Shown here: piece after piece, positions 10,964 through 26,760 of the stretch
How positions within the stretch are numbered: position 1 is the stretch's first letter
Layout of the letters: each line of letters begins with the position of its first letter
Origin: Candidatus Pyrohabitans jungbluthii
Lineage (GTDB): Archaea > Hydrothermarchaeota > Hydrothermarchaeia > Hydrothermarchaeales > BMS3B
Assembly (NCBI GenBank): GCA_002010065.2
Contig: MTMD02000002.1
Location: 544,001-608,000 of the forward strand
DNA length: 64,000 nucleotides
Reading direction: 5' to 3'
The notes under the pieces: model-generated
What the model was told of the DNA's origin: nothing
Databases searched by the model: none
The model's input: only the letters and a program-made list of their open reading frames with translations
Made by a program: the position numbers and the translations under genes

Positions 10964-13900
10964 CTATCCAAAAATTTTTACAAATCGCCGGTTAATGTAC
11001 AATAAGATTACAGCCAGTAAAAGGATGAAGTTTGGTCCACACAGATATTTCTTATTACCAGCTTCTAAATCCTCATGGGCTATATTTTCTTTTTTCATAA
11101 TAATTCTTCCTTTTCCTTTTTGTCGTGTTTTATCCACCATTTCCGCAACCGCGAATTCTGATTCATTGAATGTGGTTTCTTTAAAAGCTTTTTCTAGGTA
11201 TTTTGAGACGAATACATTTAATGGCTTTCTTTCCACATCAAACCAGCTTTTTACAACCAGTACAAGCTCATAACTCTTATTTGCAGTAGCGCTGGTGGGT
11301 ATTGTTAGGGTGATGAGGTGTTCGCTTATTCCTGGGAGGATATACCCCCTGAAGGATGGGCTGCTCCACCCATGGGGCAGATTTTCGAGATACACTTCTA
11401 CGCCAGGTTCAGCATAGTTGCTGCTCAATTTTACCCTGATGGGCACTGAATCTCCTGGGTAGATAGTCTTCGTGGGCAGAGCTACTTCGAGAATAGTAAT
11501 TCTGTGAGACATGCCATCTCCGTCTGAAACTTCATAGGAACTGCCTGTGTTACTCTGCTTGCCCATCACACCCCAAAGGGAGAGCCCACTAACCCTTGCC
11601 CAGACATAATGTGAGGATGTATCAACTCCAGAGTCAAAGAGAGTAACATTACCCAGAGGCGCTGGGCACGCGAGAACTTCGCAATCGGCCCTTATCCAGC
11701 CTTCCTTGGTGAACCTTGCAACTCTCAGGGATTCCTCTTTTATATCCTGAGGTATATCACTCTGGTTGTAGTATATTTTTAGGATGATGTACTCCATGTC
11801 AGAAAGCCAGGTTGAGTTATCTTCAGAAAAGTTGAGGAAGATGGGCAGGGTTAGATTTTCTTCTACGCTTTCTGGTAAGGAGGTGGAAATGTTTACGGTT
11901 ATATTACCACCAGTCGTTGTGTTGCCTGCTTTGAAAACCACCTCATAGCTGCCCAGCAGAGTGTTCACCACACCAGTGCTGTAGTTCTCACCCCCAGCGA
12001 GGTGAGGAATCGTATGGTGTTTTATGAGGGTTGTGATCACTGTAAGATTTCTCACACCTGTGGAAATAACATTCTGAGCAAGGTCGTTCACTACCAACTC
12101 CCAGGTGTGGTTTCCATCAGCAAGCTGCACTTTTTTCACGACCTGGCTACCATTGGTGAAGGTGCCAAAGTACTGCTGGGCGCCACCGTCTATGATCAGC
12201 CTGTATGCCAGAGTTTCATCCACGTCATCGCCTGCTTCAAACTTAAAGGATACCTCTGCTCTGGTGGAGATGTAATTGTTTACCGGTTCAACCCCTTGCA
12301 GGTATGGCGCCTGAGAGTCCACCCTAACCTCTATGGCTTCGCTTTCATTGCTGTTGCCAGCTTTGTCATACACTTCCACAGGGAGATAATATACTCCAGA
12401 CGTTATATTCCCCACAACAACTGAGTCGTTGATGTAAAAGCCGTTGTTCTCGCTGAGGAGCACTATACCCGCTCCGATTGTGGAGGCATTTACCACCACT
12501 CTGTCTACCTTTTCATCGAAGGCGGTGATGTTAAGTGTTATGACATCCCCGGGCTTTGCGACGCTCTTTCCACTTGGATATATGGTAGGGTTCACCGTAA
12601 CGCTGGGCGGGGTGTTGTCCACGATAATTGTAAAGCTCTGAGTACTGTTCTCATTTCCTACGCGGTCTTTGGCAGAAACATTAAAGGTGTAGGAACCCTC
12701 CGGGTATTCGATGGAAAACGAAGCCCCAAAAGCCCCCGGGCTGACCTCCACCATTGTGCTAATGGGGCTTCCATTTTCATTGAGTATTTTTATGGAACTG
12801 GTGTTAACACCTGAGAGAAGGTCAGCAATGGAAGCGTTTACCCATAGTGAAGCGCCTGTGGTGAGATACTCGCTGCTAATGCTGATGTTCTCTACTCGTG
12901 GAGGTGTCACATCCAGTGCGGCAAAGCTGTGTTTTATGCTCTCTGCGTTACCTGCCCTATCCACAGAATAGTATTCTATTGTGTGGTTTCCTTCAGTATC
13001 GATAAAAATCTGGTTCCCCTCCTGCCATGAGGAGTTGTCTATCCTGTAATATGTATAATTGCAGCCCGATAGGTTATCGGTGCAGCTCAGATTTACCGTA
13101 AACTCTGACCTCTGCCATTCTGAGGGTGCATCGTCGCTGGTTGAGGGAGCGCTAAGGTCTACGGTGAAGTTCCAGGATTCTGAGCTCTTTGAGTTTCCTG
13201 CGGAATCTGTACAGTTTGCATACCAGGTATAGACACCTTCAGAAAGCTCTATGTAAGTCTGATTTGAAGAGTTGCCGGGCAGGTTAGAGAAGTTAAGCCT
13301 CAGGTTTTTCTCCCCGTTTATGTAAACATCGCAGTAGGAAAAGTTGCTCAGATTCTCCTCTATGCTCAATCTGAAGAGTATGGAGCTTATATTGAAGATT
13401 TCCTCGCTCCTGGGAGTCTCTCTGTGCAGCGTGGGTGGTGTGTTGTCCACCACAATTGTGAGCTGCTGGCTACTATTTACATTCCCGGCCACATCTCTTG
13501 CTGAGAAGTTGTAGGTGTGGAGCCCTTCGAGATAATCCACTGTAATCTCTGCCATAAAGGAACTTTGGCTTATGTTGTGCATCTGTGCCAAGACTGTGCC
13601 GTTTTCATAGAGGATGAAAACTGAGCTGTTATCCACGCCAGAAGCTGCATCGTATACCTCGACAGTGACAGTGATAGTATCGCCCGTTCTTAAGTATGTT
13701 CTGCTTGCAATGGGATTCTCAAACTTAGGGGCCTGGTTATCCAGCCTGTCCGTTAGAGGGAGATAATCTATGTTTGTTCCGCCTGAGATGTTGTAGGGTT
13801 GTTCTCCTATCCCGTCCCCATCTGTATCCCAGCCTTCGTAGCCAGAGTAGAAGTTGCCTCCTGTAGAGGAGTTCCAGTAGTTGGTGCCGCTGTCGTAGAC

Positions 13901-16411
13901 GCTGCCGTATATAAAGTTACTGTAGATGAGGTTATTAAAACACGCCAGCACTTTTAATCCATAATCCTGGTTTCCTGTGATGTTGTTTGAGCTAATGGTA
14001 TTGCCGTGGCTTTTCTCCAGTGTTATGCCAAGGTAATTTTGCTCAACCTTTATATCCTGTATGCTCGAGCCGTTGGTGTTATACAGGTAGATTCCAGAGG
14101 CACCGCTTGCGTTTGCTCCCCTTATGGTGAACCCTGAGATATTTACAGCAGAGGTGTTGCTAATTAGCAGGGCATGCGCTGAGGGATCAGCGGCTACGAT
14201 AAATGTTGAAGTGTTCCCTCCGCCGATAAGGTTTATGCTCTTGTTCACGAATACGTTTTCAGTATAGGTGCCAGGGGCTACATACACCGTCTCTGCTGGT
14301 GTGGCATAATCTATGCCCGCCTGAATTGTAGGTACTTCCTCGGGCACTCTAATAACTGAGGCGTTTACCGTGAAGCTCACCGCTGAAGCATTTAGATTGC
14401 CCCAGCTGTCGTTGGCATACACAGTTAAGTTATGGAGACCATTGCTCAGGAAAGAGAGGTTAAGTAGCAGTGTGTTGCCAGCAAAGGGGGTGCTGTTATC
14501 TCCGTCGTCCACCGAGTACCATATAAAGGTGGTGCTCTCATCGGAGATACTAACGTTGAGTAGTGGTGTGTGGTCCCCCTGTACTGAGCCATTCGCTGGG
14601 GAATGTATTTGAATCTCTGGCGGAGCTATATCCACAGGATTTACCCTTACGGTGAAGTTCTCAAAGCTTGAGGTGTAGTTCTCGTTTCCTTCAAAGGTGG
14701 CATTGAAGTAAAAGACTCCGCTGGTGTTCATTTGTATGATAACCTCAAGGGGTGATGAGCCTGAAACCAGGACTTTGTCAACGCCATCGGAGTAGTTGGT
14801 AGTAACGGTGACATTTCCTGAGTCCGGCACCACCAAGACGGCTGTAAAGTTCAGGGTATCAAACTGGTTCACAACCGCATCGCTACGGGTACCATTTATG
14901 TAGAGGTGAACCGAGGAGTCAGCCTTTAAAACCTCAAGCGCTTGGGAAACACTTCCGCTGGTGTAGTTCTGTCCGCCTGAGGTGTTGAATACGTAAATGT
15001 AAACCCCCGCAGCTAAGGTTGAGATATCAGGGTTCGCCACTGGCGTGCCATTCCTGTATAAGGTGTATGTAACGTCCTCATCGCCTAAGTTGGTTTCCAT
15101 GCCGGTTATGTTCGTCTCGCTCCCGTAGGTAACGCTCCACCCTGGCGAAGCGGTTAGGTTGAGGGTAGGCGAGGCTTTGGAAACAGTGTAATAAAAGATG
15201 TCGGTGGCGTTGACCAGACCTTCGGTGTTGTTGGCATACATTCGCCACTGATAAACCCCTGCGGCAAGGGAGGGATAGGTGTAGGAGTAGGTTGACCCGG
15301 AGTAGCTGCTCACAGTGTAGTTGACCAAGCTTCCTGTGAAGTTGTGCTCTATTAACACGGTGTCAATTGCAGAATCCGGCTCGCTCCATGTTACATTGAA
15401 CTGGTAGGTTTGGGAAAAAGAGTAGCTAACAGGCGCTGGAGGCGAAGCTGAGGGGTTGCTCCAGAGGGGAGGAGTGGTGTCTGCAGGTGCTGCTATCTCA
15501 ATCGTCCTGGTCTCACTTACGTTGAGATTCCCTGCACTGTCATTAGCCCACACGCGATAGGTGTAATTCCCATTCGCCAGGTTGGTCTTGTTTATATACC
15601 AGTTCGTCCCGCTCCCGCTCATGCTCTCGTTGGTGCCGTTCCACTCTAACCAGGCTGTTCCAGGTTCGCTCAGAGTGACGTTTATGAAAGTGTATCTGCG
15701 GTCTGTTATTGTAGCTCCATCAGGGTCAGTTGGTGGGACGAAGGTTATAGTGGGGGGTGTATTGTCGGGCGGTTGCCACGGCCAGACCACTAGAGGGTAG
15801 GGGTCCTCGTTGTTGGAATCTATGATGTAGGAACTGTCGCAGATGTTGTCCCCGTCCGAGTCAGTGCAGTCAGTGTTCTTCTCCCACTTATTGCCCACAT
15901 TGTAGCCGTCGATGGTGGAGTACCAGGTGTTTGTAACTAAAAAAGTTAGAGAAATAGTTTCGTGATAATCTTCTTGGGTATTGTTGAGGTAGTTGTTGTA
16001 GTATGTAGCACCATTCCCGGTATTTTCAATACCATAGTAATTGGAGGATATATTATTTCCTGTTATCACAGCGCTGGACCCTACTTGAATTCCTCCCTCC
16101 CAGTCGGTTATGACGCAGTTTCTTACCGTAACATTGACCAAGTCGGTGGGTATAGAAATTCCTATACTATTAGAATTATCAGTCCCATCTATTCTGTAAC
16201 CCTGACAGTCAAGCACAACGTCACTTGCGGAGATAGTTATGCAGGTGGAAGCGTAAGAGTCGATTATGTCACCTATTAGATAGTAAACACCTGAAGTGTC
16301 AATGTTAACCCCACATGAACTAATCGTCGCAGCACTACCCTCTCCAACAAGGGCAACAAAAGCTACCACCAAGCACAGGAGGAGTTGTCTTATTTTTTCC
16401 ATGGCACCCAA
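10964..16411 (-). CDS. Large cell-surface glycoprotein: two NosD/CASH beta-helix regions, many Ig-like repeats, CGP-CTERM
   Basis: Signal peptide; beta-helix repeats with DxDGDxIxD motifs; repeated D(N/T)TPP...YTxxVxAxDxAGN units; C-terminal LCGP + TM + RR. Start may be the ATG at 16402. Confidence 0.88.
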   Translation of the reverse strand: MGAMEKIRQLLLCLVVAFVALVGEGSAATISSCGVNIDTSGVYYLIGDIIDSYASTCITISASDVVLDCQGYRIDGTDNSNSIGISIPTDLVNVTVRNCVITDWEGGIQVGSSAVITGNNISSNYYGIENTGNGATYYNNYLNNTQEDYHETISLTFLVTNTWYSTIDGYNVGNKWEKNTDCTDSDGDNICDSSYIIDSNNEDPYPLVVWPWQPPDNTPPTITFVPPTDPDGATITDRRYTFINVTLSEPGTAWLEWNGTNESMSGSGTNWYINKTNLANGNYTYRVWANDSAGNLNVSETRTIEIAAPADTTPPLWSNPSASPPAPVSYSFSQTYQFNVTWSEPDSAIDTVLIEHNFTGSLVNYTVSSYSGSTYSYTYPSLAAGVYQWRMYANNTEGLVNATDIFYYTVSKASPTLNLTASPGWSVTYGSETNITGMETNLGDEDVTYTLYRNGTPVANPDISTLAAGVYIYVFNTSGGQNYTSGSVSQALEVLKADSSVHLYINGTRSDAVVNQFDTLNFTAVLVVPDSGNVTVTTNYSDGVDKVLVSGSSPLEVIIQMNTSGVFYFNATFEGNENYTSSFENFTVRVNPVDIAPPEIQIHSPANGSVQGDHTPLLNVSISDESTTFIWYSVDDGDNSTPFAGNTLLLNLSFLSNGLHNLTVYANDSWGNLNASAVSFTVNASVIRVPEEVPTIQAGIDYATPAETVYVAPGTYTENVFVNKSINLIGGGNTSTFIVAADPSAHALLISNTSAVNISGFTIRGANASGASGIYLYNTNGSSIQDIKVEQNYLGITLEKSHGNTISSNNITGNQDYGLKVLACFNNLIYSNFIYGSVYDSGTNYWNSSTGGNFYSGYEGWDTDGDGIGEQPYNISGGTNIDYLPLTDRLDNQAPKFENPIASRTYLRTGDTITVTVEVYDAASGVDNSSVFILYENGTVLAQMHNISQSSFMAEITVDYLEGLHTYNFSARDVAGNVNSSQQLTIVVDNTPPTLHRETPRSEEIFNISSILFRLSIEENLSNFSYCDVYINGEKNLRLNFSNLPGNSSNQTYIELSEGVYTWYANCTDSAGNSKSSESWNFTVDLSAPSTSDDAPSEWQRSEFTVNLSCTDNLSGCNYTYYRIDNSSWQEGNQIFIDTEGNHTIEYYSVDRAGNAESIKHSFAALDVTPPRVENISISSEYLTTGASLWVNASIADLLSGVNTSSIKILNENGSPISTMVEVSPGAFGASFSIEYPEGSYTFNVSAKDRVGNENSTQSFTIIVDNTPPSVTVNPTIYPSGKSVAKPGDVITLNITAFDEKVDRVVVNASTIGAGIVLLSENNGFYINDSVVVGNITSGVYYLPVEVYDKAGNSNESEAIEVRVDSQAPYLQGVEPVNNYISTRAEVSFKFEAGDDVDETLAYRLIIDGGAQQYFGTFTNGSQVVKKVQLADGNHTWELVVNDLAQNVISTGVRNLTVITTLIKHHTIPHLAGGENYSTGVVNTLLGSYEVVFKAGNTTTGGNITVNISTSLPESVEENLTLPIFLNFSEDNSTWLSDMEYIILKIYYNQSDIPQDIKEESLRVARFTKEGWIRADCEVLACPAPLGNVTLFDSGVDTSSHYVWARVSGLSLWGVMGKQSNTGSSYEVSDGDGMSHRITILEVALPTKTIYPGDSVPIRVKLSSNYAEPGVEVYLENLPHGWSSPSFRGYILPGISEHLITLTIPTSATANKSYELVLVVKSWFDVERKPLNVFVSKYLEKAFKETTFNESEFAVAEMVDKTRQKGKGRIIMKKENIAHEDLEAGNKKYLCGPNFILLLAVILLYINRRFVKIFG

Positions 16412-18993
16412 GCCTTAAACAGAGCTAATACTACTATAGAGATTAAAATAACCAGGTTAGGCCCGCAGATGCCCTTCTTCTCTGGTGATTCTCCTTCTTC
16501 AACGATTTCCTCTTTGACAACCTCCTCTTTTTTCTCAGGTGGTTGAGAATAATCTTTACCGGAAGAGGCGGCTTTCTTCTTTGCCTCTTTCACCTGCTTT
16601 TCGCTGAACATCATAATTCCAAACTCTTCAAATGGAACAATGCTTCGGGTTTCCTGTACACTGTAGCCAGAGTTAGGGCTGCCTGAGATTGCGAAGAAAC
16701 CAAACCTATCGGTTTTCACAATAAAGTAAACATATTCGTAATCCTCTGAATAGGGCATGGTTTCAAGCTCTATCCAGACATTATCTTCTTTTATGTAACC
16801 CTTGATAGTATTAACGCTTACATCATTATTTTCCAGCCATGACTTTGCTATTCTGAATTTTATCTCTGCACTTGCAACATATGCATCAGGTTTATCAAAG
16901 TGTATTTTATAGTACCCATATACCTTTCCAGAAGGTTCCTCAAAAATGAAAGCTGGTTTTTCTTTGTGGGTATCCACACAGATCTTCGTATAGTACATAT
17001 CCTGGGCTCCAATAATGCCTATTGAAGCCACATCCGGCACTGCTTCGGGATCGAAAATCGCAGTGCCAGTGCTCCCAGCAAGTATCTTGGGAATTTCCAT
17101 ACAGTTCTCCGCAAGCCCGCCACCTCCACCGCCGCCCGCCGCTGGTGGAGGCGTCTCGCCCGGAGGTAGAGAAATCTCAGTAACGTTAATTGTCACCTCA
17201 TCGCTCGCCACGTTCCCTGCTGTATCGCTGGCTTCCAGTTTGTAGCTCCTCAGCCCCACACTGGAGGTATCAACAGACCATTCTATTGTGCTGCCGGATG
17301 CATAGACCCCACTAACTAAGAGGGTTTCGTTTAGATATATTCTGAAGTCTTTCGGGTGCTCCTCGGTAATTGTCCAAGTGATTGTTGTGGCGGTTCCCTG
17401 TTCAACTTCTGTTCCCGGACTAACGCTTCTGGTTATCTCAGGAGCCTCCAGATCTATCTCTATTGTTCTGCTCTCGCTGCTCCCCCAGTTTCCTGCGAGG
17501 TCTCTGCCATAAACCCTGTAGGTGTGTGTGCCGTGGGTAATCCCAGACTTTGTCCCAGACCAGCTATCCCCAGAGCCGCTCATCGAGATATTTTCTACTC
17601 CATCCCACTCCAGCAACGCCTCGCTCAAATCTTCGGTGGCGGTTATGGCAACTGTAATACTGGTGTCAGAAGTTACTGCTCTGTCCTGAGGCGTGGGTGA
17701 AACAAAGCTTATACTTGGTGGAGAGGTGTCAGGAAGCTCAACAGTAAAACTCACAGAAGCCTCGGCGATGTTGTTCGCCAAGTCGACGGCTATAATTTTA
17801 ATAGTGTGGCTACCCTCTGAGGCGTTGATGGTAATGGGCGGGCTGAAGGGCAGGTAGGCACCCCCATCTAGGGAGTAGAACCACCTTGCCACACCCTCGT
17901 CGGCGCTTACGTCGAGAGAAACCTCTGTGGAGGGGTATGTTATACTCTGGGGCGAGTTAATTGTTATCTGAGGCGGAGCTAGGTCCTTAAGTTCCTCTGG
18001 CGATGAAGTGGAATAGAGGGGTAGATTGTCACTTCCCAGAAGGCGGGTATAGGCATTGTAAGCAGAGTCTCCTATTCCATCGTTGTTGTTGTCGGTGCCG
18101 GTGTAGTCCCACCAGTAGTTGCCACCTATGTACTGCCCGCCGATGATATTTTCCCCCGAAGTTTTTGCGGTATTCCAGGTATTTGATGTATCTTCGCTTG
18201 CGGTGTTGTCCACGTATACGAAATTGTTGTAGAATAAGTTGTTTGAGGAGGAGGTTATAAAGATACCAACGGCATTCTCAACAGAAGAGTAGATAACATT
18301 GCTTTTAACAGTATTGGAGTTTGAAGAACTCTCCAAGACTATGCCGCCATTTGATACCCCTCCCTTTATATCGTTGCCTTCTATTGTATTGGAAGAGGAG
18401 GAGCGCAGGTATATTCCCATGGATGAGCTTCCTATAATGCCGTTGTTTTTTACAATGTTTCCATCGGAATTCTTTATTCTTAGGGCCTCTCTGCTGTAGA
18501 TAATCAAATTGTTTTCAACCGTCACGCTTGAAGCGTCTTCTAGCAGAATTGGATATGGGACTCCTATAAAAGCTGAATTTTTAATTGAAAATCCCTGCCC
18601 TGAAACTTTTATTCCAAATTTGGCTCCCTGGAAGACAAAATTTGACACCTCTGCGTTGTCTGCGGTTACTGTAATCAGCGTGTCAGTTGTCCTGGGTAAA
18701 AGTATGGGGTTGTTTTTACCTAGAAGCTTTAGACTCTTGGATAGAAAAATCCCAGCCTCTTCCTCATATATACCATCGCACACCACAATCGCGTCATTGT
18801 TCGCAGCCTCGGCAACCGCCTTTCTAATAGGATTTGGGTACTCGGAGGATGAGTAATAGCTATCTCCGTTTTCACAGGGGGCGGTCCCCTGGTAAACTAC
18901 CAGAGTTGCTGCATTTACTAAAGAAAAACTCAGCATTACAACAGCAAGCACCCACAGTTTCTCTGAATATCTATTCATTCCACAGTCCCTCAA
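16390..18993 (-). CDS. Cell-surface protein: NosD-like beta-helix, Ig-like domains, PGF-pre-PGF-like domain, CGP-CTERM
   Basis: GGNYW..Y.G.D.N.DGIGD; Ig repeats; PPPAAGGGGGGG linker; AEIKFRIAKSWL...FGFFAISG; KKGICGP + TM. Confidence 0.87.
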   Translation of the reverse strand: MRDCGMNRYSEKLWVLAVVMLSFSLVNAATLVVYQGTAPCENGDSYYSSSEYPNPIRKAVAEAANNDAIVVCDGIYEEEAGIFLSKSLKLLGKNNPILLPRTTDTLITVTADNAEVSNFVFQGAKFGIKVSGQGFSIKNSAFIGVPYPILLEDASSVTVENNLIIYSREALRIKNSDGNIVKNNGIIGSSSMGIYLRSSSSNTIEGNDIKGGVSNGGIVLESSSNSNTVKSNVIYSSVENAVGIFITSSSNNLFYNNFVYVDNTASEDTSNTWNTAKTSGENIIGGQYIGGNYWWDYTGTDNNNDGIGDSAYNAYTRLLGSDNLPLYSTSSPEELKDLAPPQITINSPQSITYPSTEVSLDVSADEGVARWFYSLDGGAYLPFSPPITINASEGSHTIKIIAVDLANNIAEASVSFTVELPDTSPPSISFVSPTPQDRAVTSDTSITVAITATEDLSEALLEWDGVENISMSGSGDSWSGTKSGITHGTHTYRVYGRDLAGNWGSSESRTIEIDLEAPEITRSVSPGTEVEQGTATTITWTITEEHPKDFRIYLNETLLVSGVYASGSTIEWSVDTSSVGLRSYKLEASDTAGNVASDEVTINVTEISLPPGETPPPAAGGGGGGGLAENCMEIPKILAGSTGTAIFDPEAVPDVASIGIIGAQDMYYTKICVDTHKEKPAFIFEEPSGKVYGYYKIHFDKPDAYVASAEIKFRIAKSWLENNDVSVNTIKGYIKEDNVWIELETMPYSEDYEYVYFIVKTDRFGFFAISGSPNSGYSVQETRSIVPFEEFGIMMFSEKQVKEAKKKAASSGKDYSQPPEKKEEVVKEEIVEEGESPEKKGICGPNLVILISIVVLALFKAWVPWKK

Positions 18994-19101: not shown

Positions 19102-19716
19102 TTATCCCTTCTTTCCCAGGTTTTTCAATCGGTTAAATAACTTTTTCATCAATCTTACTTCATTTTTACCATTTGCAGCATATATATTTTGGTTTTCAGG
19201 TATTACATAATTAAAAACTTTAGCAAGGCAGTCATCACAGAAATATAGTGACTTTTTGTCTATTTCATAAACGCTGCTGGAGAACTTCATGTTGCAGTTC
19301 TCATTTGAGCAATGGTTTAATCCGAAGGTATGTCCCAGCTCATGAAGAGCCTCCTTCAGCAACCTTTCAAGGAAAATCTTAGAGTGGTATCCCCGGTAGT
19401 AACCCTCCATTAAGCGAACAGGTGAAATCACGGCGCACCTCCCTCCCAGGGAAGCTAATCCAAAAATATAGTCAAAGTTCGCAACTGTTATGTCCCTACT
19501 AATAACACCAAGCACTTTATCAGCTTTTGTGAATCGTATAGTGAGGTCGTCTAAAAGGATATCTGCAAGCACCTGCCCCCTTTCATTAAACCAAAGAGGC
19601 AGTTCTTCCGGCGGAGAAATCAAAACATTTTCAAAATACTCCTTCAACCTTAATTTCAGGTACTCAAGCCAGAACTTATTCACGTCACCAATTGGAAGAA
19701 TTTCAAGAGCTACCAC
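19102..19716 (-). CDS. amzA: Archaemetzincin (M54 zinc metalloprotease)
   Basis: KEALHELGHTFGLNHC..NCNMKFS...DKK...FCDDC. Confidence 0.92.
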   Translation of the reverse strand: MVALEILPIGDVNKFWLEYLKLRLKEYFENVLISPPEELPLWFNERGQVLADILLDDLTIRFTKADKVLGVISRDITVANFDYIFGLASLGGRCAVISPVRLMEGYYRGYHSKIFLERLLKEALHELGHTFGLNHCSNENCNMKFSSSVYEIDKKSLYFCDDCLAKVFNYVIPENQNIYAANGKNEVRLMKKLFNRLKNLGKKG

Positions 19717-19818: not shown

Positions 19819-21117
19819 CTAAGAGAAGCCCCACTTCCTCAGCTCTGCCTTCGCTTTCCTCCTTTTACCTTCTAATCTCGCTATCTTCTCCTCTGTCAGG
19901 GCGATGTAATCCTTAAGCTGCTTCTCAAGTTTTTCCACTTTCGCCAGCTCTATGCGTGACCTCTCATCGCTGCTCTCTCCAGAGAGTGAGTCTTTAAAAT
20001 CGTAATACTTCTCCAGGCACTTCTCCATTATTCTGCGCAGACTGAAGCCGCCTAGGAGAATCATGGCATCAACGCTCTTACTCTCGGGAGAGGTGATCAA
20101 GCTGGTGTACCTCAGAATCCCTCCTCGCCCGCCTGCCAGGTGCTTCACAGCCCACTCGCGGGAGATGTCCTCTAAATCTTCCTGGGTAATCTCACCCTTC
20201 AGCACCTTCTCTTCAGGGGCGATAACTATTATGTAGGCCATTGTGGCGGTGCCCTTGTCCAGGGGTACCATTGCGTTGTTGGAAGCGCTCTCTAGGATTG
20301 CGTCCAGGCTGAGCACATCTGGGTCATTCCCAAGGCTCAGGCAAGGGGTGAAATGGATTGTCCCTAAATTGCTGGGGAGCTGATAGTAGTCTGCGATATC
20401 TATCGTTGCCTTCGAGGCATAGGTGCTGGGCGCAATCAGCATGTGTATCGCCCTTATAATCTCCTCGTTTATCCTCTGGTAGCGCTCCTCCTTCTGCCCC
20501 CGCCCTAGGTCGAGAATATGCTCCACCTGTGAGTTGTCCACAAGGATTACCAACGCAGCGTTCTGCTCGCCGTTATAGCGCAACAACCTTGAGAGGCCAC
20601 AGATGGCGTTGAAATGCCTCTGCGGAGCCTCAAAGTCATAGGGAAAGATGCCCAGCGCTATGAAGTTGTTTATCCTCTCCATGCCGAAGCCAGGGTTCCT
20701 CCTAACTCTGTGGATGATGTAGGGTAGCGACCCGTTGCCTGTGCCTCCTCCCAGGGTAGCGATACCAAGGAGCACATCGCTGCTCCGAAGCCTTAAGCTT
20801 GCGATGTATCTTCGTATGTTCTCGTAATCCTCAATTGCTTCTCTTTCGCCAAGAACCCAGTTGTTACCCGCGCCGCTTGGAGCCCTGCCAAAAATGCAAA
20901 CCCGCTCGCGTTTTATCTTCTCGTACTTTTCCCTCAGCTCGGGGCTCTGCGCAAAGATGTGCTCCAGCGGCTTCTCGGGCTTAACGTCCGCCGGCGTTGT
21001 ATTGAGGAGAAGCACTCTATCGCCGATGCTCGGATTTTTATACTTCGCGTAGTAAAGAAAGGCTATGCGGTTTGCGCCCTGTCCGCTCGCTATTATACCC
21101 CATCTTGTAGCTTGCAT
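19819..21117 (-). CDS. Divergent tubulin/FtsZ-superfamily GTPase with tubulin-like motifs
   Basis: T1 SGQGANRI; T3 SGAGNNW..G; T4 TLGGGTGNG; FNA; LVDN; INEEI; T7 TIDIAD; C-terminal helical/coiled-coil extension. Confidence 0.9.
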   Translation of the reverse strand: MQATRWGIIASGQGANRIAFLYYAKYKNPSIGDRVLLLNTTPADVKPEKPLEHIFAQSPELREKYEKIKRERVCIFGRAPSGAGNNWVLGEREAIEDYENIRRYIASLRLRSSDVLLGIATLGGGTGNGSLPYIIHRVRRNPGFGMERINNFIALGIFPYDFEAPQRHFNAICGLSRLLRYNGEQNAALVILVDNSQVEHILDLGRGQKEERYQRINEEIIRAIHMLIAPSTYASKATIDIADYYQLPSNLGTIHFTPCLSLGNDPDVLSLDAILESASNNAMVPLDKGTATMAYIIVIAPEEKVLKGEITQEDLEDISREWAVKHLAGGRGGILRYTSLITSPESKSVDAMILLGGFSLRRIMEKCLEKYYDFKDSLSGESSDERSRIELAKVEKLEKQLKDYIALTEEKIARLEGKRRKAKAELRKWGFS

Positions 21118-21121
21118 GCTT

Positions 21122-22495
21122 TCAACCTTTGAGCTTTAATGTTTTCTTCTCAAATTTAACCTCTGGATGTGTTTCGCTATAGCGTTTGAGGAAATCCTCG
21201 GCATAGCGCACCTTGAGTTCCTCTGCACTCACCTCGCCATTCTCCCTGAGCTTCTGCTCTATAATCTTTTCTATCGCCGGGTAGTTTTTAGCTATCTTCA
21301 CAGTCTTATATCTGGTGTCAAATTCGCCAGATAGGGTCTTAAGCACATCAAGCGCTTCCTTTGAAAACTTGGAGAAATCCTTTCTGGGGTCAAGCTTTGA
21401 GACGTACCTCTCAACCCCCTTCCTTCTTACCCCAGCCACCTCCAGCTTTTTCAGCTCTTCTTCTAGGGCTACAATCTCCCTTGCGAGGGCTCTAGCAACC
21501 TCAAGCGTGAGCCTCTTTGCTTCTTCCCTGAGGGTGCTTAGTTCGCTGAGGTAGCCAGGGTCATCATAGCTCAGCACCTTCTCCCTAAGGCTTAAAACTG
21601 CGCGCTCCTCCTTTACAAAGTCCTCCTTGATAAACTTGAGAAGGCGCTCCAGGTAGCTAATTATCTCCTTCTTTTCCTGCAGGAAGGGCTTTGTAAGGTA
21701 GCTTGCAGCCTCGCTTCGCACCTTCTGAAGCTTGGGTATAACCTCTACGCTATGTCGGCGCTCCTTAACTATCTCAAGCTCCTTTCTCAGGTGAACAACC
21801 TCAGCAGAGATGCTTTCGGCTGTATCTAGGAGAAACTCCGCTTCGCTGATGCACTTCTGAATTATCTTCAGATATACCTCCTCGCTTCGTCTGCGCTTTT
21901 CAAGTAGCTCTCCCAGCGTAGCGGAGGGCATCTTCACTATTCGTCTCAGCTCTTCGTACTCCTCGCCCACAGAGAATCCGCTCTCAACCAAAGCTTTCGC
22001 GGCGCTGAGCAACTCTTCCATCCTCTTCGCTGCTGCTTCACCATAGCTCGCAGCAGCCAGCGACTCCAGGCTGCGAAGCTGCTGCTCAACTTTCCTGCTC
22101 TCCAGCTCAATCGCGGTGAGCGTCACCTTTTCAATTTTCTTCTCGTTTACCTCAAAGTCCTTCGTGAAGAATCCTTTTGATATAAGCTCCTTCCTTATCC
22201 TCTTCAAATCCCTCATAAAGGGCTCAATGTCGATAAACTCAGAGGCTTCTTTTATGTTATCTTCTATCTTATCCAGCGCACTCCTAATTTTGTTCAGAAT
22301 TTCAATTTTAAGAAGCATTACGGTCTTGTCGGTCTTGCTCTTCCACCAGGTGTAAATTAGGCTAGCAATGAGCACGGATACTATTACTCCAACCGCAAGG
22401 TAGGATACAAAGTTTATTCCAAATGTGAGGAGCAGGAACAAGCCTGCACCCAGCGTGGCAAGGACTACCAGGGCGGTTATCACATATTCGTTCAT
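21122..22495 (-). CDS. Membrane-anchored long coiled-coil protein
   Basis: Two N-terminal TM helices followed by about 400 aa of E/K/L-rich helical sequence; gaps of 2-4 nt to the flanking tubulin-like genes. Confidence 0.82.
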   Translation of the reverse strand: MNEYVITALVVLATLGAGLFLLLTFGINFVSYLAVGVIVSVLIASLIYTWWKSKTDKTVMLLKIEILNKIRSALDKIEDNIKEASEFIDIEPFMRDLKRIRKELISKGFFTKDFEVNEKKIEKVTLTAIELESRKVEQQLRSLESLAAASYGEAAAKRMEELLSAAKALVESGFSVGEEYEELRRIVKMPSATLGELLEKRRRSEEVYLKIIQKCISEAEFLLDTAESISAEVVHLRKELEIVKERRHSVEVIPKLQKVRSEAASYLTKPFLQEKKEIISYLERLLKFIKEDFVKEERAVLSLREKVLSYDDPGYLSELSTLREEAKRLTLEVARALAREIVALEEELKKLEVAGVRRKGVERYVSKLDPRKDFSKFSKEALDVLKTLSGEFDTRYKTVKIAKNYPAIEKIIEQKLRENGEVSAEELKVRYAEDFLKRYSETHPEVKFEKKTLKLKG

Positions 22496-22497
22496 TT

Positions 22498-23697
22498 TTA
22501 AGCCTCGCTCTCAAGGAAATCTTTCTCGTATTCCTCAAGTACGCGCAGGGAGATATCTTTGTACTGGCTTGCAAGCTGGCTCAACGTCTTCAGGCGAGAA
22601 ATCTGATTTGGGCGGTAGGTTAGCAACACAGTCGCCGTCGCTAGGTTGCGCTTTGTCAGGGCGACGCCGAAGTGGGTCTCTCCAAGGCGAGAGTGCTCCT
22701 CCATCACCTGCTTAGCCATGCTGGTGTTTATCCTGCCGCGCTTTGTCAGGTAAACAGGGGGGATGCGCAGCAGCACAAGGTTCTTCTCCGCGTGCTCTGG
22801 TCTAACGTCGGCGAGGGTGAGCTTCATGAAGCTCCTGTAGAGCAGGGAGATGACATCTATCTCCTTATACCCGCCGAAGGGGAAGATATAGTGCAGAAAG
22901 TTTCTCGTTCTCTCAGAAGCTCTGCCTAGGGCTGCGAAGCCAGGACGAGTGCGCTTTCCAAAGGAGAAGCTTGTCGCGGCTATCATGTCCTTGAGGTCAA
23001 TCACAGGAGCGTAGCCCTCGTACTGCGATGGGTCCACACGTTCTATCACAGTGCCTATGAGAATGTCCCGTATGCTCCTAGCAACGTACTCATTGTACCT
23101 CTGGAACAAGCTCTCGGCACTTTCTGCGTACGCAAGCTTCTGGTTGTCTACCAGAATCACAGAGTCCACGTGCTCTATGATCAGGTTTAAGCTTTCCACC
23201 GCATTTTTCGCTGTAAGACCGCCCTCATGCGTTGCTGGCAGCACAACTATGGCGATAACCGGAATTCTCATCTCCTTCAAAACGCTCGCAACCACAGGTC
23301 CAGCCCCACTCCCGGTGCCACCACCCAGAGCAAAGGCAACAAAAGCCACGGGCACGCCTATACCCGAGCCCTCCTCGCTCTCGATGCTTAACCTCTCCAC
23401 AATCGCCTCCTTCAGGTTGTCCCTGAAGCGCATGGCATCTTCCTCTGCCTTTGCGCGGTTCTTCCCGTAGCCCCCGCTCACAAAGTGCTCAAAGCCGTGG
23501 AGTGTGCCCGGGATGAACCCTCTATCCCTTGACATTCCAATCCAGTGCTCTCGCTTTATGTTTTTGAGTGTCTGCAGGTCTAGGGTAGCCGAGTTTATGG
23601 CTATGGGCACGGCTATTTTGAACATTATCTCATCATAAAAAGCAGCGTCTATTATTGCTCCGCCGCACTGTCCCACACCTATAAAAGCGTATGGCAT
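22498..23697 (-). CDS. CetZ-like tubulin/FtsZ-family GTPase
   Basis: Start set at ATG 23697 (GGTGA RBS). IGVGQCGG, AINSA..DL, GGYGKN, FALGGGTGSG, LPA..EG, KNA, LVDN, VIDLKD, GFAALG. Confidence 0.9.
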   Translation of the reverse strand: MPYAFIGVGQCGGAIIDAAFYDEIMFKIAVPIAINSATLDLQTLKNIKREHWIGMSRDRGFIPGTLHGFEHFVSGGYGKNRAKAEEDAMRFRDNLKEAIVERLSIESEEGSGIGVPVAFVAFALGGGTGSGAGPVVASVLKEMRIPVIAIVVLPATHEGGLTAKNAVESLNLIIEHVDSVILVDNQKLAYAESAESLFQRYNEYVARSIRDILIGTVIERVDPSQYEGYAPVIDLKDMIAATSFSFGKRTRPGFAALGRASERTRNFLHYIFPFGGYKEIDVISLLYRSFMKLTLADVRPEHAEKNLVLLRIPPVYLTKRGRINTSMAKQVMEEHSRLGETHFGVALTKRNLATATVLLTYRPNQISRLKTLSQLASQYKDISLRVLEEYEKDFLESEA

Positions 23698-23777
23698 GAT
23701 TTCACCAGCTTGCTCTGAGGTAACCTCGCTGTTCGCTTTTATATTTATTTCAAAGGTCAAATATAAAATATTATTGC
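23698..23777. promoter_or_regulatory. 80-bp divergent promoter between the tubulin operon and the surface-protein pair
   Basis: AT-rich, with TTTATATTTATTT and AAATATAAAATA TATA-like elements between head-to-head starts. Confidence 0.55.
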
Positions 23778-24728
23778 ATGGGCTCAAGGGTGCTTCTTCT
23801 CATTCTGTTCACGATTTCGTTGATTCCCAGTGTTCATTCTCTGGACTGTGGAGATGTCCTCGCGGAGCTTCGTGGCTTCACTTCGTCAGCCTTCGCTGCC
23901 TATCCAGAGCTTAGGCAGGTGAAGCAGGATACCTTGCTTCTGCTCTACTCCCAGCAACGCACAGCATGCGACATTCAGCTTTTGAACTTTGCCTCCTCTT
24001 CCATGGAGTATCTCAAAAGCATGGATGCCGCCTACCTTCTTGTAAGCAGCGCTGAGCTGGAGTCTCAGAGGGAGGGGGTGAAGAAGGCGATAGAGGCTGA
24101 GAGGTTTATCTCTGAGATGCGCTCAGATAGCACTGAGCTGGGAATCCTCGCTCAAGATGCGGTGCAAGAGGCTGAACAGGGGAGGGAGAACTTCCTACTT
24201 TCGCAGGCTCTGACCTTCGAGAGTAGGGCTGAGAAGGCTGAGAGCACAAGGGATAAGCTGGCAAACTTTGAGCTCGCCATAGCTTGCTACGAGGCGGCAG
24301 ACGCTCTTCAGGCGAATAGCTTGAAGGTCAGAAAGCAGAGCTTAGAGGAGAAGTACATAGCTGACATAGTGGCAGCGCAGGAGTACCTGAGCGAAGCAAT
24401 AGCTTTGCTCACGCGCGCAGAAAAGCTTGAGGTCGCCTTCCTCGGCTTTGTGGACGCGTACACCTTAGCAAGGGAAGCAAAGATGAGCCTTGTCAGGGCT
24501 AAAGAACTTTACCAGCTTCATCACGAGAAGGAGAAGCTGGCGGAGGTTGAGGAGGTCTCTATTAATGCTGAAGAAGTCTACTCCTCAACCAGAAAGAGGA
24601 TTCTGATGCTATTTGCCATTGTTTCTCTAACTCTCACCTCGCTTTCGGTGTACATCCACAGCATAATTCTAAGCTGGGAAAGGGATACCTATGACTGCTA
24701 TCTTGGTAACGAGCTTGTGGGGGCATAG
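23778..24728 (+). CDS. Single-pass membrane protein with alpha-helical ectodomain and short conserved cytoplasmic tail
   Basis: Signal peptide (VHS|LDC), Ala/Glu-rich helices, C-terminal TM, tail WERDTYDCYLGNELVGA. Confidence 0.8.
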   Translation: MGSRVLLLILFTISLIPSVHSLDCGDVLAELRGFTSSAFAAYPELRQVKQDTLLLLYSQQRTACDIQLLNFASSSMEYLKSMDAAYLLVSSAELESQREGVKKAIEAERFISEMRSDSTELGILAQDAVQEAEQGRENFLLSQALTFESRAEKAESTRDKLANFELAIACYEAADALQANSLKVRKQSLEEKYIADIVAAQEYLSEAIALLTRAEKLEVAFLGFVDAYTLAREAKMSLVRAKELYQLHHEKEKLAEVEEVSINAEEVYSSTRKRILMLFAIVSLTLTSLSVYIHSIILSWERDTYDCYLGNELVGA

Positions 24729-24729
24729 C

Positions 24730-26760
24730 ATGCGCTTCTTGAGTATTCTTCTTGTTACGCTCTTACTCTTCGCCTCACCTGTGAGCGCCCAGGTTACGGC
24801 AAGCTTTGACTATGATGAGGTGGACTTTTACTTCGACAAGCCCAAAAATGAGGTCTCCTATTTTGAGGAGAACTTAACCTTGGAGTTCTTCAATGCAGAC
24901 AATGAGAGCGCAGCGATACTCTCTGGTCTTGAGGCAACGCTCTCTGGCGAGGCGAAGGATAAGGGCATGAGTGTTGTCCTCGAGAAGAGCTATCTTCGGG
25001 TTGAACCCAACGATAAATCTTACCTCACCATTTCCTTCCGTGCACCCCCAAGCGTGCCTGAGGGCAGGTATGAAGCGAAGCTTGAGGTTAAGGGCAACTA
25101 CACTTACATTACCAAGCAGGGTGTCCACACCCTACTCCATGAATTCTACATCACAGTAAATGTTGACCACCCACCTGCGACGCTTGCGGCGAGCTGGGAC
25201 CTTGCGGAATGGGGAAAGCTCAGAGCAGGGCAGAGCTTTGAGCGCACCCTCACCGTGAGGGAGGTTTATGGGTACGCTGGGGCAAGCAACGTTACGCTCT
25301 ATCTCTCAAGAACAGGACCCGTGAACCTCACCTACACCTCGAGCTTAGGGGATATACCCGCAGGAGGGTCAAAGAGCATTAAGGTTAAGGTTCAGGTACC
25401 TGAGAGGTACCTTAGGCCGGGAGACTACAAAGTTGTTCCAAAGATTGTGAAAGATTACAAAACGCAGGTGTCAACGCTTGAGCAGGCTAACTATACCATC
25501 CCAAAGCCAGAGATGGCGATTTCCACCACTAAGTTAAATTTCGGCAGGCTCACCTTTGAGGTTGGCAAGGATACAGCGACAGCAAGCATAACTGTCAGCG
25601 AGGTTGGTGGCTACACTCCAATCGAGGGTTTGAGCATCTCTCTGGTTAAGGGGGAGGAGGGGTGGGTGGGCTACACCCAGGTTAACTACATTCCCCCAGG
25701 GAGGAATGCAACAGTAAACTTTACCCTTATCCTGCCCCCGGATGCAAGCCTCGGAAAAAAAAGCTGGATTTTTGAAATAACTACTGTGCATGCCGGGAGT
25801 GTGGAGATTCTTGGGGAGGCTATAGTGTATTTCCCAGGTTTGGATGAGGCGGAGCGTTCCCTCGCTGCCCTGCCCTCGCTGCCCTCTCATCCAGAGGTCA
25901 AAGAGGCGGTGCAGAACCTGCGGGAGATGATAGCAGCCTCTAGGGATGTAACCGAACTCAGGGAGATAGCAATGGTCATGTCGGTGTACAGCGGCGTTAG
26001 CTCTTTTGTGAATATCCTAGCAGGTGCTGAAGGTAAGCCCCTTGAGGAACGCGTTGAGAGCATTATACTTGCAAAGAGGAGTCTCAACAGAGCAAAGATA
26101 GGAAGCGAGAACCTGGAGGACAGGAACTTAAAGAAGTACGCTATACCCGCGGTTGAAGCCTTAGAGAACGTGTGGAAAAGGGAGGCAGGCTCAGCAGCAG
26201 AGGCTCTTGAGGCTGTGGTAAAGCAGAAGGAGGAAAGCGATTACCGTGGCGCAGCGCTGGACTACAAGAGGCTTAAGACGCTTTATTCGCTGCTCGGTGA
26301 AGCTGAGAGTGCGAAGGAGTACGCCTCAAAGCAGGAGGAGATGGAGCGTGCCTATTTCAACTCCCTATCTGAGGCGATGTCCCTCCTCAGGCTTGCGGAG
26401 GAAAATGTAAGCGCAGCTAGAAGGCTCACCTTCAATATAAAGGAAGCCTCCTTTGTTATCAACCCCTTCCATTACGAGGCGGTTATGGCTTACTACGATG
26501 ATGCTCTCTCCAGCGTTGAGAGGGCAAGGCTTCTTCTTGACAGGGCGGGCGAAGATGAGGAGGCGAAGCTGCTTCAGAGGAGGATGAAAGAGCTCAAAGA
26601 CAGGAAGCGCACCATTGAGAGAACCTTCAGGGTCTACCTTGCCTTCCTCACCCTCTTCTTCCTGTGGTTTGTGGCGAGGGTGACTCTGGGTCTGCTGCGC
26701 TGGATTCGTGACTCGGAGGCTCTTGCAGAGGGCGACGTGCTCCTTGGGGCCGAGGGTTAA
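24730..26760 (+). CDS. Single-pass membrane protein: about 3 Ig-like domains, helical stalk, TM and conserved tail
   Basis: Start set at ATG 24730 (signal peptide VSA|Q). Ig-like repeats (PEGRY, PGDY, V.EV.GY), helical region, TM, tail WIRDSEALAEGDVLLGAEG. Confidence 0.82.
   Translation: MRFLSILLVTLLLFASPVSAQVTASFDYDEVDFYFDKPKNEVSYFEENLTLEFFNADNESAAILSGLEATLSGEAKDKGMSVVLEKSYLRVEPNDKSYLTISFRAPPSVPEGRYEAKLEVKGNYTYITKQGVHTLLHEFYITVNVDHPPATLAASWDLAEWGKLRAGQSFERTLTVREVYGYAGASNVTLYLSRTGPVNLTYTSSLGDIPAGGSKSIKVKVQVPERYLRPGDYKVVPKIVKDYKTQVSTLEQANYTIPKPEMAISTTKLNFGRLTFEVGKDTATASITVSEVGGYTPIEGLSISLVKGEEGWVGYTQVNYIPPGRNATVNFTLILPPDASLGKKSWIFEITTVHAGSVEILGEAIVYFPGLDEAERSLAALPSLPSHPEVKEAVQNLREMIAASRDVTELREIAMVMSVYSGVSSFVNILAGAEGKPLEERVESIILAKRSLNRAKIGSENLEDRNLKKYAIPAVEALENVWKREAGSAAEALEAVVKQKEESDYRGAALDYKRLKTLYSLLGEAESAKEYASKQEEMERAYFNSLSEAMSLLRLAEENVSAARRLTFNIKEASFVINPFHYEAVMAYYDDALSSVERARLLLDRAGEDEEAKLLQRRMKELKDRKRTIERTFRVYLAFLTLFFLWFVARVTLGLLRWIRDSEALAEGDVLLGAEG

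Follow-up and report, generated by a model that had tools for sequence, protein, structure and literature searches.

Here we describe a gene module which looks like an unstudied, membrane-attached archaeal cytoskeleton rather than a forerunner of true tubulin. It lies in a stretch of 64,000 nucleotides (hereafter the window; contig MTMD02000002.1, positions 544,001 to 608,000 of the forward strand) from the archaeon Candidatus Pyrohabitans jungbluthii, and its central element is a gene for a tubulin/FtsZ-superfamily protein that we call FAM. The reading towards which we lean, with reserve, is that FAM constitutes the GTP-binding and probably filament-forming part of a membrane-tethered module, together with a CetZ-like paralog (NB), a helical membrane protein (CC457) and two surface-like proteins (CC316 and NEW3_689; Table 1). 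The genes for FAM, CC457 and NB come and go together within the phylum, and complex prediction supports the binding of the CC457 C-terminal domain to FAM.

The FAM family within the tubulin/FtsZ superfamily

FAM is an intact and very divergent member of the tubulin/FtsZ superfamily. The Pfam family Tubulin (PF00091) matches its residues 81-202 with 32.5 bits (E 1.4e-7), half a bit below the 33-bit cut-off, and also matches all 55 aligned relatives, with a best E of 8.3e-13. When single sequences are compared, its best solved relative is the FtsZ of M. jannaschii (36.1 bits, E 2.9e-8). An AlphaFold2 model, built from the alignment of the 55 relatives, is confident (predicted local distance difference test, pLDDT, 90.2; predicted template modeling score, pTM, 0.91), and in a fold search over cluster representatives the chains of the tubulin superfamily occupy the top 17 places of 48,161. 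The PF00091 matches, the FtsZ sequence match and the confident model thus indicate homology and not chance resemblance. An initial annotation, made from the letters of the window, had already proposed a tubulin-superfamily homolog, and both the Pfam matches and the fold matches bear this out; the motifs that it named were all recovered at their places by re-translation.

Several positions are invariant in the 55 sequences of the family: G12 and G14 in T1; G82, G84 and N85 in T3; G123-G127, G129 and S130 in T4; N195; and D240 and D243 in T7. The same holds for H255, P258 and A278, and D265 is conserved in at least 90%. Furthermore, the T4 signature GGGTGNG is present in 113 of 120 homologs among the matches listed. 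The nucleotide pocket and the acidic T7 pair are therefore kept, the latter as the initial annotation had pointed out. FtsZ uses such an acidic pair for hydrolysis and, by analogy, D240 and D243 would be catalytic and FAM would be an active, polymerizing GTPase.

The family is a conserved archaeal one, found in Hydrothermarchaeota, Micrarchaeota, Altiarchaeales, ANME-2 (group 2 of the anaerobic methanotrophic archaea)/Methanosarcinales and Halobacteria. A search of 5.8 billion proteins returned 227 relatives at E<=0.001, with identities to FAM of 70-89% for Candidatus Pyrohabitans proteins, about 55% for Hydrothermarchaeales, 45-48% for Micrarchaeota and 35-38% for haloarchaea; the homolog of Natronomonas moolapensis bears the name "FtsZ family protein, noncanonical". 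Against 1.84 billion representatives, the family profile retrieves 49 proteins at E<=1e-30, 116 at <=1e-10 and 1254 at <=1e-3. Genomic context was analyzed in 80 named loci, the best 80 of 105 relatives from a scan of one genome per species. They comprise 23 metagenome-assembled genomes (MAGs) of Hydrothermarchaeota type, five Micrarchaeota, four Altiarchaeales, 25 ANME-2/Methanosarcinales, one Methanoperedens and 22 Halobacteria, this last count including one MAG labeled "bacterium".

The position of the family was analyzed in a tree of 90 rows and 382 columns (IQ-TREE, LG+C20+F+G4 with posterior mean site frequencies, PMSF, quick search; branch support by the Shimodaira-Hasegawa-like approximate likelihood ratio test, SH-aLRT). 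The rows consist of 26 family members, 12 weaker hits of the family profile, 40 further profile hits, six paralogs from the source genome and six NB orthologs, fragments below 300 residues and sequences without the T4 motif being excluded. Holding no tubulin, the tree tests only whether the family nests within another prokaryotic one. The family forms a clade of 28 rows (SH-aLRT 95), into which two of the 12 weaker hits fell, and joins a sister group formed by the other ten (99). Family and sister group stand apart from FtsZ and the TubZ-like proteins (91), as well as from CetZ, the CetZ-like proteins and the NB family (94). As the initial annotation had expected, FAM is thus not placed within FtsZ, canonical CetZ, TubZ-like proteins or the NB family. 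The hhalign scores against the family are 419 for the sister group, 278 for one CetZ-like group, 248 for TubZ-like proteins, 226 for CetZ, 206 for FtsZ and 123 for the NB family. Altogether, the FAM family appears to be a separate deep branch of the superfamily, neither FtsZ, canonical CetZ, TubZ nor true tubulin. A recent duplication of NB was considered as the origin of FAM and rejected, because the hhalign scores of this pair (123-134) are the lowest of all and the two proteins belong to separate clades.

The sister-group proteins are about 420-460 residues long (they are among profile hits P0144-P0176), a Dehalococcoidia bacterium being the source of one of them. In a motif scan, several further profile hits from this range showed no GGGTG-type T4, and they may be GTPase-dead relatives. 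The source genome itself has seven paralogs of the superfamily, i.e., two FtsZ, a tandem group of three, the CetZ-like neighbor NB and FAM. The near-tandem trio (381, 338 and 391 residues; L003, L004 and L006) is found outside the window, at about 456,000-459,600 of the genome's own contig and about 105 kb from FAM; in the tree, one of its members goes with canonical CetZ, and the remaining two, on long branches, also fall within the CetZ clade.

The gene module and a predicted adaptor contact

FAM is the last gene of a minus-strand trio in which NB and CC457 precede it, with intergenic gaps of 2 and 4 bases. In all ten Hydrothermarchaeota loci that were fetched, and as far as their contigs reach, the same order is kept: NB, CC457 and FAM run in one direction, and CC316 followed by NEW3_689 in the other. 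Orthologs of CC316 adjoin the module in nine of these loci, the tenth being cut by a contig end, and orthologs of NEW3_689 are present in eight, the other two being cut. No significant Pfam or NCBIfam family was found for CC457 or CC316; NEW3_689 matches PF10633 with 28.4 bits and has a sub-threshold "choice-of-anchor D" match. PADLOC gave no match for FAM, CC457, NB or CC316, and a weak one for NEW3_689 (E 0.0028). Both CC316 and NEW3_689 are hydrophobic at the two termini, a trait of anchored surface proteins. Conservation in CC457 is highest in its C-terminal domain, of about 50-60 residues, where E409, I412, F435 and Y439 are invariant among 22 orthologs. By eye, the pattern of this domain resembles that of a small winged-helix-like domain.

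Among 38 genomes of the phylum, FAM is found in 24 and CC457 in the same 24. NB is present in 23 of them, and the single miss (G024) is a genome 70% complete whose contig begins just upstream of CC457. None of the three genes is present in the other 14 genomes, of which seven have a completeness of at least 90%. By genus, each of the three genes is present in 13 of 21.

In the wider set of 80 loci, NB lies within 8 kb of FAM in 49, and relatives of CC457 do so in 47. For NB, this corresponds to 21 of the 23 loci of Hydrothermarchaeota type (both misses being cut by contig ends), all five Micrarchaeota, the single Methanoperedens, 21 of the 22 Halobacteria, none of the four Altiarchaeales and one of the 25 ANME-2 (a weak match of 211 bits). 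The haloarchaeal clusters keep weak relatives of CC316 and NEW3_689, together with a protein of about 1000 residues with several membrane helices, and five of the 22 haloarchaeal loci have a second copy of the FAM family. This second copy precedes the CetZ-like gene and lies some 8 kb upstream of the other copy (L091, L098, L099, L101 and L103, from Halorussus and Halorubellus). In turn, the five "solo" FAM genomes (Altiarchaeum and ANME-2) all carry relatives of CC457 elsewhere in the genome (E 3.5e-50 to 2.2e-35), and all carry NB-like genes as well (8e-133 to 6e-58), with 195-214 bits in ANME-2 vs 436-442 in Altiarchaeum.

The joint presence and absence of the genes in the phylum, and the co-encoding of both paralogs in 49 loci from four lineages, would also suit a different arrangement, where FAM and NB form an obligate heterodimer or co-polymer, like alpha/beta-tubulin, BtubA/B or AtubA/B, with CC457 as an accessory; such a pair would be compatible with membrane tethering, although the filament would then have a different composition. 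An acidic T7 pair is present in both proteins (D234 and D237 of NB are invariant in 30 sequences) and, over the same ten loci, NB is far more conserved than FAM, with identities of 65-92% vs 50-86%. However, few of the pairs compared are as dissimilar as these two (hhalign 123-134), which are not recent duplicates, and no NB adjoins FAM in 24 of 25 ANME-2 and four of four Altiarchaeales loci. Moreover, a pass in complex prediction would be hard to tell from likeness to the solved tubulin dimers. We consider an obligate pairing rather unlikely.

Homologs of FAM are also found on five plasmid records, three from Halobaculum, one from Natrinema and one, pHS2, from Halobacterium salinarum R1. The Natrinema plasmid locus carries the whole cluster. 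The pHS2 homolog, annotated as "hypothetical protein", stands in the same kind of cluster and adjoins two genes annotated as "cell division protein FtsZ". From these records it could be argued that FAM is a TubZ-like motor of DNA or plasmid partition and that the cluster serves the maintenance of mobile elements, the more so as TubZ-like proteins are the third-best profile match of the family (hhalign 248) and viral tubulin-like clusters are among the nearest in an Atlas feature search. Nevertheless, FAM is located about 564 kb into a contig that reaches beyond 608 kb, and in Hydrothermarchaeum it is found on a contig of 1.9 Mb. In addition, its constant partners are membrane and surface proteins and not a small DNA-binding adaptor, the TubZ C-terminal family is found in 0 of 55 members, and there is no PADLOC or mobile-element signal for FAM, CC457 or NB. 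We give a partition motor next to no credence.

As for the membrane-tethered module, a physical link between two of its parts is suggested by complex prediction, which took alignments of CC457 residues 55-457 and of FAM as input. Its three runs scored 0.65, 0.63 and 0.64 (median 0.64), and the best of three controls reached 0.00; the mark for such scores, which 58 of 80 solved complexes attained, as did 2 of 110 mismatched pairs, is only a rough guide here, own alignments having been used. At least 90% of the contacts are common to the runs, and the partner pLDDT is at least 84. In the predicted complex, residues 400-431 of CC457, in its C-terminal domain, meet residues 264-280 of FAM, in the S7-H9 loop and H9, next to the most conserved block of the FAM family, HFTPC.S.GNDP. 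On the CC457 side, conservation at the contact residues exceeds the average of the protein (0.58 vs 0.45). Since solved complexes of this kind are not known to us, it seems unlikely, though possible, that the pass reflects structures memorized by the predictor. In tubulin, the position of the interface corresponds to the M-loop. A grip on the side of the subunit would leave the longitudinal faces free for polymerization.

In the mechanism that we propose, FAM subunits would join head to tail into a polymer, by way of the nucleotide pocket and the T7 loop (D240 and D243). CC457, anchored in the membrane by its hairpin of two helices, would reach into the cytoplasm with a long helical arm that ends in a small conserved domain at the C-terminus, and would tie the polymer to the inner face of the membrane. 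This domain would grip the side of the C-terminal domain of FAM at the S7-H9 loop and H9, and the filaments so tethered would position or shape components of the envelope. We infer here both the topology and the cellular role.

Several considerations weigh against such a module. Polymerization and GTP hydrolysis are presumed from conserved residues only, and the presumed outside-facing topology of CC316 and NEW3_689 comes from a crude hydropathy scan. A listing of sequencing runs for window positions 19819-23787 contained no RNA data set with these genes. The complex score is the model's own confidence and no measurement, and on the FAM side the contact residues are slightly less conserved than the average (0.49 vs 0.56, 55 sequences). 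Moreover, the coupling of FAM to the module is not universally tight, since FAM does not stand beside CC457 or NB in ANME-2 and Altiarchaeales, and the NB-like genes of ANME-2, with bit scores far below those of Altiarchaeum, may be ordinary CetZ paralogs. Finally, the pattern of presence and absence reflects few events of gain and loss, given that related genomes are not independent.

Table 1. Features of the module in the window; residue numbers are those of the protein named, and lengths are in amino acids (aa).
Feature	Position	Strand	Basis
FAM, divergent tubulin/FtsZ-superfamily GTPase, 432 aa	19819..21117	-	ATG-started open reading frame
FAM, T1 ASGQGAN	residues 10-16	-	re-translated at own coordinates
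FAM, T3 loop GAGNNW, residues 82-87	20857..20874	-	re-translation
FAM, T4 signature GGGTGNG, residues 123-129	20731..20751	-	re-translation
FAM, VDN	residues 193-195	-	re-translation
FAM, T7 loop TIDIAD, residues 238-243, acidic pair D240/D243	20389..20406	-	re-translation
FAM, HFTPCLSLGNDP	residues 255-266	-	re-translation
FAM, S7, S7-H9 loop and H9: HFTPCLSLGNDPDVLSLDAILESASN, residues 255-280	20278..20355	-	secondary structure of the model
FAM, VDAMILLGGFSLRRIMEKCLEKY	starts at residue 349	-	re-translation
FAM, H11-like helix, residues 361-377	19987..20037	-	AlphaFold2 model
FAM, H12-like long helix, residues 391-417	19867..19947	-	AlphaFold2 model, pLDDT 96-97 at 391-410
FAM, C-terminal tail KAELRKWGFS, residues 423-432	19822..19851	-	re-translation
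CC457, 457 aa, predicted N-terminal two-helix membrane hairpin (residues 1-52), long helical region, conserved C-terminal domain	21122..22495	-	open reading frame
CC457, C-terminal domain, residues 396-445	21161-21310	-	alignment of 22 orthologs
NB, CetZ-like tubulin-superfamily paralog; likely true start Met at 23697, 399 aa	22498..23787	-	open reading frame
CC316, 316 aa, hydrophobic N-terminus, helical body, C-terminal hydrophobic helix; presumed surface protein	23778..24728	+	open reading frame
NEW3_689, 689 aa, hydrophobic N-terminus, beta-sandwich NEW3-type domain, C-terminal hydrophobic helix; presumed surface protein	24691..26760	+	PF10633

The surroundings of the module in the window present some further features. 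Directly downstream of FAM lies a gene for a zinc metalloprotease of the archaemetzincin family (19102-19716, minus strand; NF033823 145.3 bits, cut-off 145), whose position is conserved in two loci of the same genus. Just downstream of FAM there are also two very large presumed surface proteins, of 1815 residues (10964-16411, minus strand) and 867 residues (16390-18993, minus strand), with parallel beta-helix (NosD-like) repeats and OmpL47-type barrel domains, and a PGF-pre-PGF domain in the smaller one. Both end in Cys-Gly-Pro-Asn, a hydrophobic helix and basic residues, an arrangement that looks like a sorting or anchor signal, and two further loci of the genus have relatives of them in the neighborhood of the module. 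Further away, at window positions 56001-62000, the G+C content is 0.33-0.41, against about 0.50 elsewhere in the window, and this segment may be a foreign island.

Affinities to tubulin, CetZ and FtsZ

GAGNNW is the signature of the T3 loop of tubulin, and the initial annotation had counted it among the traits specific to eukaryotic tubulins. As a trait of the family, this did not hold: the exact motif is present in 50 of 120 homologs among the matches listed and, in the genomic loci, it is found in one branch only, i.e., in 23 of 23 loci of Hydrothermarchaeota type and in none of the other 57. Elsewhere the loop reads GAGNVW (Altiarchaeales and Micrarchaeota), GTGNFW (ANME-2), GAGNVY (Methanoperedens) or GAGNFF and variants thereof (Halobacteria). 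The form common to the family is G-x-G-N-x-[W/F/Y], where Asn is the fourth residue and the sixth is aromatic, and it still appears nearer to the tubulin loop than to those of FtsZ and CetZ. Among the profile hits beyond the family, CetZ-type loops appear from E of about 3e-17 and FtsZ-type loops then at about 1e-10, and these hits do not show the pair of Asn-4 and aromatic-6. The tubulin T3 hexapeptide plus Ala occurs in none of the T4-motif-bearing rows among the best 150 of the 1.84 billion representatives.

The W-G-F tail, to which the initial annotation had ascribed a possible binding of membranes, is present in 18 of the 23 members of Hydrothermarchaeota type, four of four Altiarchaeales and one of five Micrarchaeota, and in none of the 25 ANME-2, the single Methanoperedens and the 22 Halobacteria; the conservation of the tail is thus restricted to some lineages and not family-wide, and in FAM the tail, KAELRKWGFS, is outside the predicted CC457 interface. 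In turn, the T1 loop of the CetZ-like neighbor NB, at its residues 7-13 (window 22501-23697, minus strand), reads GVGQCGG, which is close to the T1 signature of tubulin. Tubulin-like motifs are therefore not confined to FAM but scattered among lineages.

Compared with all PDB sequences, the family profile finds CetZ1 first (54.9 bits, E 4.6e-14), followed by archaeal FtsZ (50-52 bits), CetZ2 (45.2) and the CetZ of M. thermophila (39.8). Gamma-tubulin reaches 39.4 bits, the TubZ of phage c-st 36.6, OdinTubulin 36.5, BtubB 32.7, AtubA 30.4 and beta-tubulin about 29. The families of the C-terminal domains, Tubulin_C (PF03953), FtsZ_C (PF12327), CetZ_C (PF21011) and those of TubZ, gave no match to FAM at E<=1 and none to its 55 relatives at E<=0.1. 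The initial annotation had named Tubulin_C and FtsZ_C as profiles to compare, and the absence of Tubulin_C does not support its view of FAM. FAM also scores 38 bits against TIGR00065, the FtsZ equivalog, whose cut-off is 295.2. Furthermore, Tubulin_C was found in none of ten profile hits scanned with Pfam, where the Tubulin domain is present and TubZ C-terminal domains occur in three. Among the matches listed in the Atlas, those nearest in features and in structure are prokaryotic or viral clusters of tubulin-like proteins (CetZ_C, FtsZ_C, TubZ-like) and none has Tubulin_C, an observation that serves as a lead only.

The fold search with the FAM model, in which rows within one Z unit count as tied, gives a different ranking. 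In the order of Z, aligned residues, root-mean-square deviation (rmsd) and identity, the values are 37.0, 360, 3.0 and 12% for BtubA; 36.9, 371, 3.0 and 14% for beta-tubulin; 36.0, 376, 3.2 and 17% for OdinTubulin; 35.8, 321/334, 2.5 and 19% for CetZ2; 35.7, 367, 2.9 and 13% for AtubA/B; 34.9, 375, 3.2 and 14% for gamma-tubulin; 34.8, 319, 2.9 and 18% for the CetZ of M. thermophila; and 32.4, 303, 2.6 and 17% for FtsZ. TubZ (Z 25-28) and PhuZ (Z 22-23) come below them. CetZ2 is thus tied with OdinTubulin and AtubA/B, and is 1.1-1.2 units under BtubA and beta-tubulin. A model of NB (pLDDT 85.7) served as a control, with Z values of 36.4 for CetZ2 and 35.2 for CetZ vs 31.1 for BtubA, 30.4 for beta-tubulin and 30.2 for OdinTubulin. 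The predicted structure of FAM is, accordingly, 6-7 Z units nearer to tubulins than that of NB, and no further from CetZ. Foldseek alone does not separate the families (OdinTubulin 7.8e-18, M. jannaschii FtsZ 1.2e-17, CetZ1 3.0e-16).

In the FAM model, S10 occupies residues 349-356 and is followed by a helix at 361-377 and a second long helix at 391-417, so the S10-H11 resemblance that the initial annotation had guessed is found in the model, and an H12-like helix with it. The alignments with CetZ2 and CetZ reach model residues 380-383, and those with tubulins reach 412-419 (chain residues 423-441). Both helices of the predicted model align to the tubulin C-terminus, and these alignment ranges suggest that the helix at 391-417 packs on the body of the protein as H12 of tubulin does. 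The two C-terminal helices of the NB model align likewise, so the H11- and H12-like helices do not set FAM apart.

These comparisons bear on the idea that the FAM family is specifically related to true tubulins, as their sister or stem, with the T3 loop and the H11-H12 helices inherited from a common source. Asn-4 and aromatic-6 of T3, which are family-wide and missing from the CetZ- and FtsZ-type hits, would suit such a kinship, as would the greater structural nearness of FAM than NB to tubulins and the position of the family outside the CetZ, FtsZ and TubZ-like clades. Nevertheless, CetZ2 is tied with the tubulins in Z (35.8 vs 36-37) and has a better rmsd and identity, and the profile scores of CetZ1 and archaeal FtsZ exceed that of gamma-tubulin, the best-scoring tubulin, by 11-16 bits, and those of the other tubulins by a wider margin. 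In addition, Tubulin_C is found in 0 of 55 members, the T7 loop has an FtsZ-like Asp pair, exact GAGNNW is confined to one branch, and the sister group includes the Dehalococcoidia protein. The initial annotation's statement that FAM is closer to true tubulins than its CetZ-like neighbor thus stands as regards predicted structure, and is not supported by the sequence profile, which favors CetZ1 and archaeal FtsZ. In these comparisons no evidence was found that FAM is nearer to tubulin than to CetZ, and a specific kinship with tubulins appears improbable to us, also in light of what has been published.

Related systems and significance

Indeed, proteins of this kind have been described before. 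Novel "CetZ-like groups", including one named "Halo.Tub" in Halobacterota, were reported by Santana-Molina, del Saz-Navarro and Devos (2023; PMC9871819), and by description they appear to be the same as the FAM family. According to the available parts of that paper, their position was unstable, as one tree put them between CetZ and tubulins and another grouped them with CetZ, and the authors concluded that the groups are nearer to CetZ than to tubulin, partly from shared indels. Brown and Duggin (2023; PMC9856176) placed such proteins in an uncharacterized bin of "non-canonical TSF proteins". The likeness to the groups of PMC9871819, taken from its descriptions only, concerns their hosts (Halobacteria, Methanosarcina and Altiarchaeota, to be compared with FAM loci in Halobacteria, ANME-2/Methanosarcinales and Altiarchaeales), N-terminal blocks resembling eukaryotic tubulin, coiled-coil neighbors of no known family and a "quasi-tandem disposition" of copies. 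The available text of both papers does not describe Hydrothermarchaeota or Micrarchaeota members of the family, nor the five-gene module, the joint presence and absence of its genes or the contact with a partner. From the accessible parts of PMC9871819, it follows that the idea of a tubulin ancestor has already been raised and largely answered in print; moreover, bona fide Asgard tubulins are known (PMC13394414, in its available part; PDB 9f6v and 24rt) and have taken over the role of tubulin ancestors.

In the literature search, the term "Halo.Tub" was found in PMC9871819 only, and queries on CetZ with Hydrothermarchaeota and on noncanonical "FtsZ family protein" with Halobacterium yielded nothing on the FAM family. 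PMC7002104 was considered as a lead on noncanonical FtsZ and discarded, as in its available text "noncanonical" refers to transposons only. Growth-phase regulation of cetZ5 (VNG6260G) in Halobacterium is reported in PMC7439475; this gene may or may not belong to the cluster, and it does not enter our argument. In the portion available of an Asgard preprint (10.64898/2026.02.15.705738), CetZ is used only as an outgroup.

Among solved proteins, CetZ (H. volcanii CetZ1, 4b46, and CetZ2, 4b45; Methanosaeta thermophila, 3zid) offers the closest comparison, CetZ1 being the best solved relative by the family profile. Like FAM, CetZ is archaeal and has a C-terminal helix after S10, and both would be tied to the envelope, CetZ according to the accessible literature. 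In contrast, FAM is outside the canonical CetZ clade and has, as do its 55 relatives, no CetZ_C (PF21011); its T3 loop is of the form G-A-G-N-x-W/F/Y, whereas CetZ-type hits read G-H-G-V-G-x-D, and its model presents the extra long helix 391-417. The gene neighborhood is different as well.

True tubulins (alpha, beta and gamma; OdinTubulin, 7ev*; AtubA/B, 9f6v; BtubA/B, 2bto and 5o09) share with FAM the T3 loop GAGNNW and an alignment that spans residues 4-417 of the FAM model, including both predicted C-terminal helices. Like one member of a Btub or Atub pair, FAM is also one of two paralogs in a single operon. However, their identity to FAM is 12-18% and Tubulin_C is not matched by FAM; the H1-S2 loop of FAM is short, about 10 residues in the model, whereas that of tubulin is long, the T7 loop of FAM has the form Asp-x-x-Asp, and its partner gene encodes a membrane protein.

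In the case of FtsZ and its membrane tethers, which are SepF in archaea and FtsA and ZipA in bacteria, the logic is alike, with a polymer held at the membrane by a dedicated adaptor. FAM and FtsZ share the acidic T7 pair, and archaeal FtsZ is the best single-sequence match of FAM (E 2.9e-8). Nevertheless, FAM remains far from the FtsZ equivalog (38 vs 295.2 bits), has no FtsZ_C and coexists with the genome's own two FtsZ genes. The known FtsZ tethers use the C-terminal peptide, whereas the predicted adaptor contact of FAM is on the side of the C-terminal domain, at residues 264-280.

A bolder combination of these ideas can be imagined. It would make FAM and NB a two-component polymer, gripped by the adaptor at the M-loop position and coupled to the surface proteins; outside the Asgard archaea, no lineage would stand closer to the tubulin stem than that of FAM, and the whole would be an envelope-spanning machine that at least five archaeal lineages have inherited or exchanged as one unit. 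Taken as a whole, we find it very doubtful.

Returning to the module that we favor, the significance of these results lies less in the origin of tubulin than in archaeal cell biology. For tubulin origins, the value of the FAM family is smaller. The spread of tubulin-type loop and helix features among deep CetZ-like lineages warns against taking one motif as a sign of ancestry, now that bona fide Asgard tubulins are known. Of greater interest is the conserved module with its candidate adaptor. It provides a concrete candidate for how archaeal tubulin-like filaments other than FtsZ may be attached to the membrane and envelope, by means of a dedicated adaptor with a predicted contact surface. Since a copy of the cluster is carried by pHS2 of Halobacterium salinarum R1, a laboratory archaeon amenable to genetics, this idea can be tested by deletion, localization and biochemistry.

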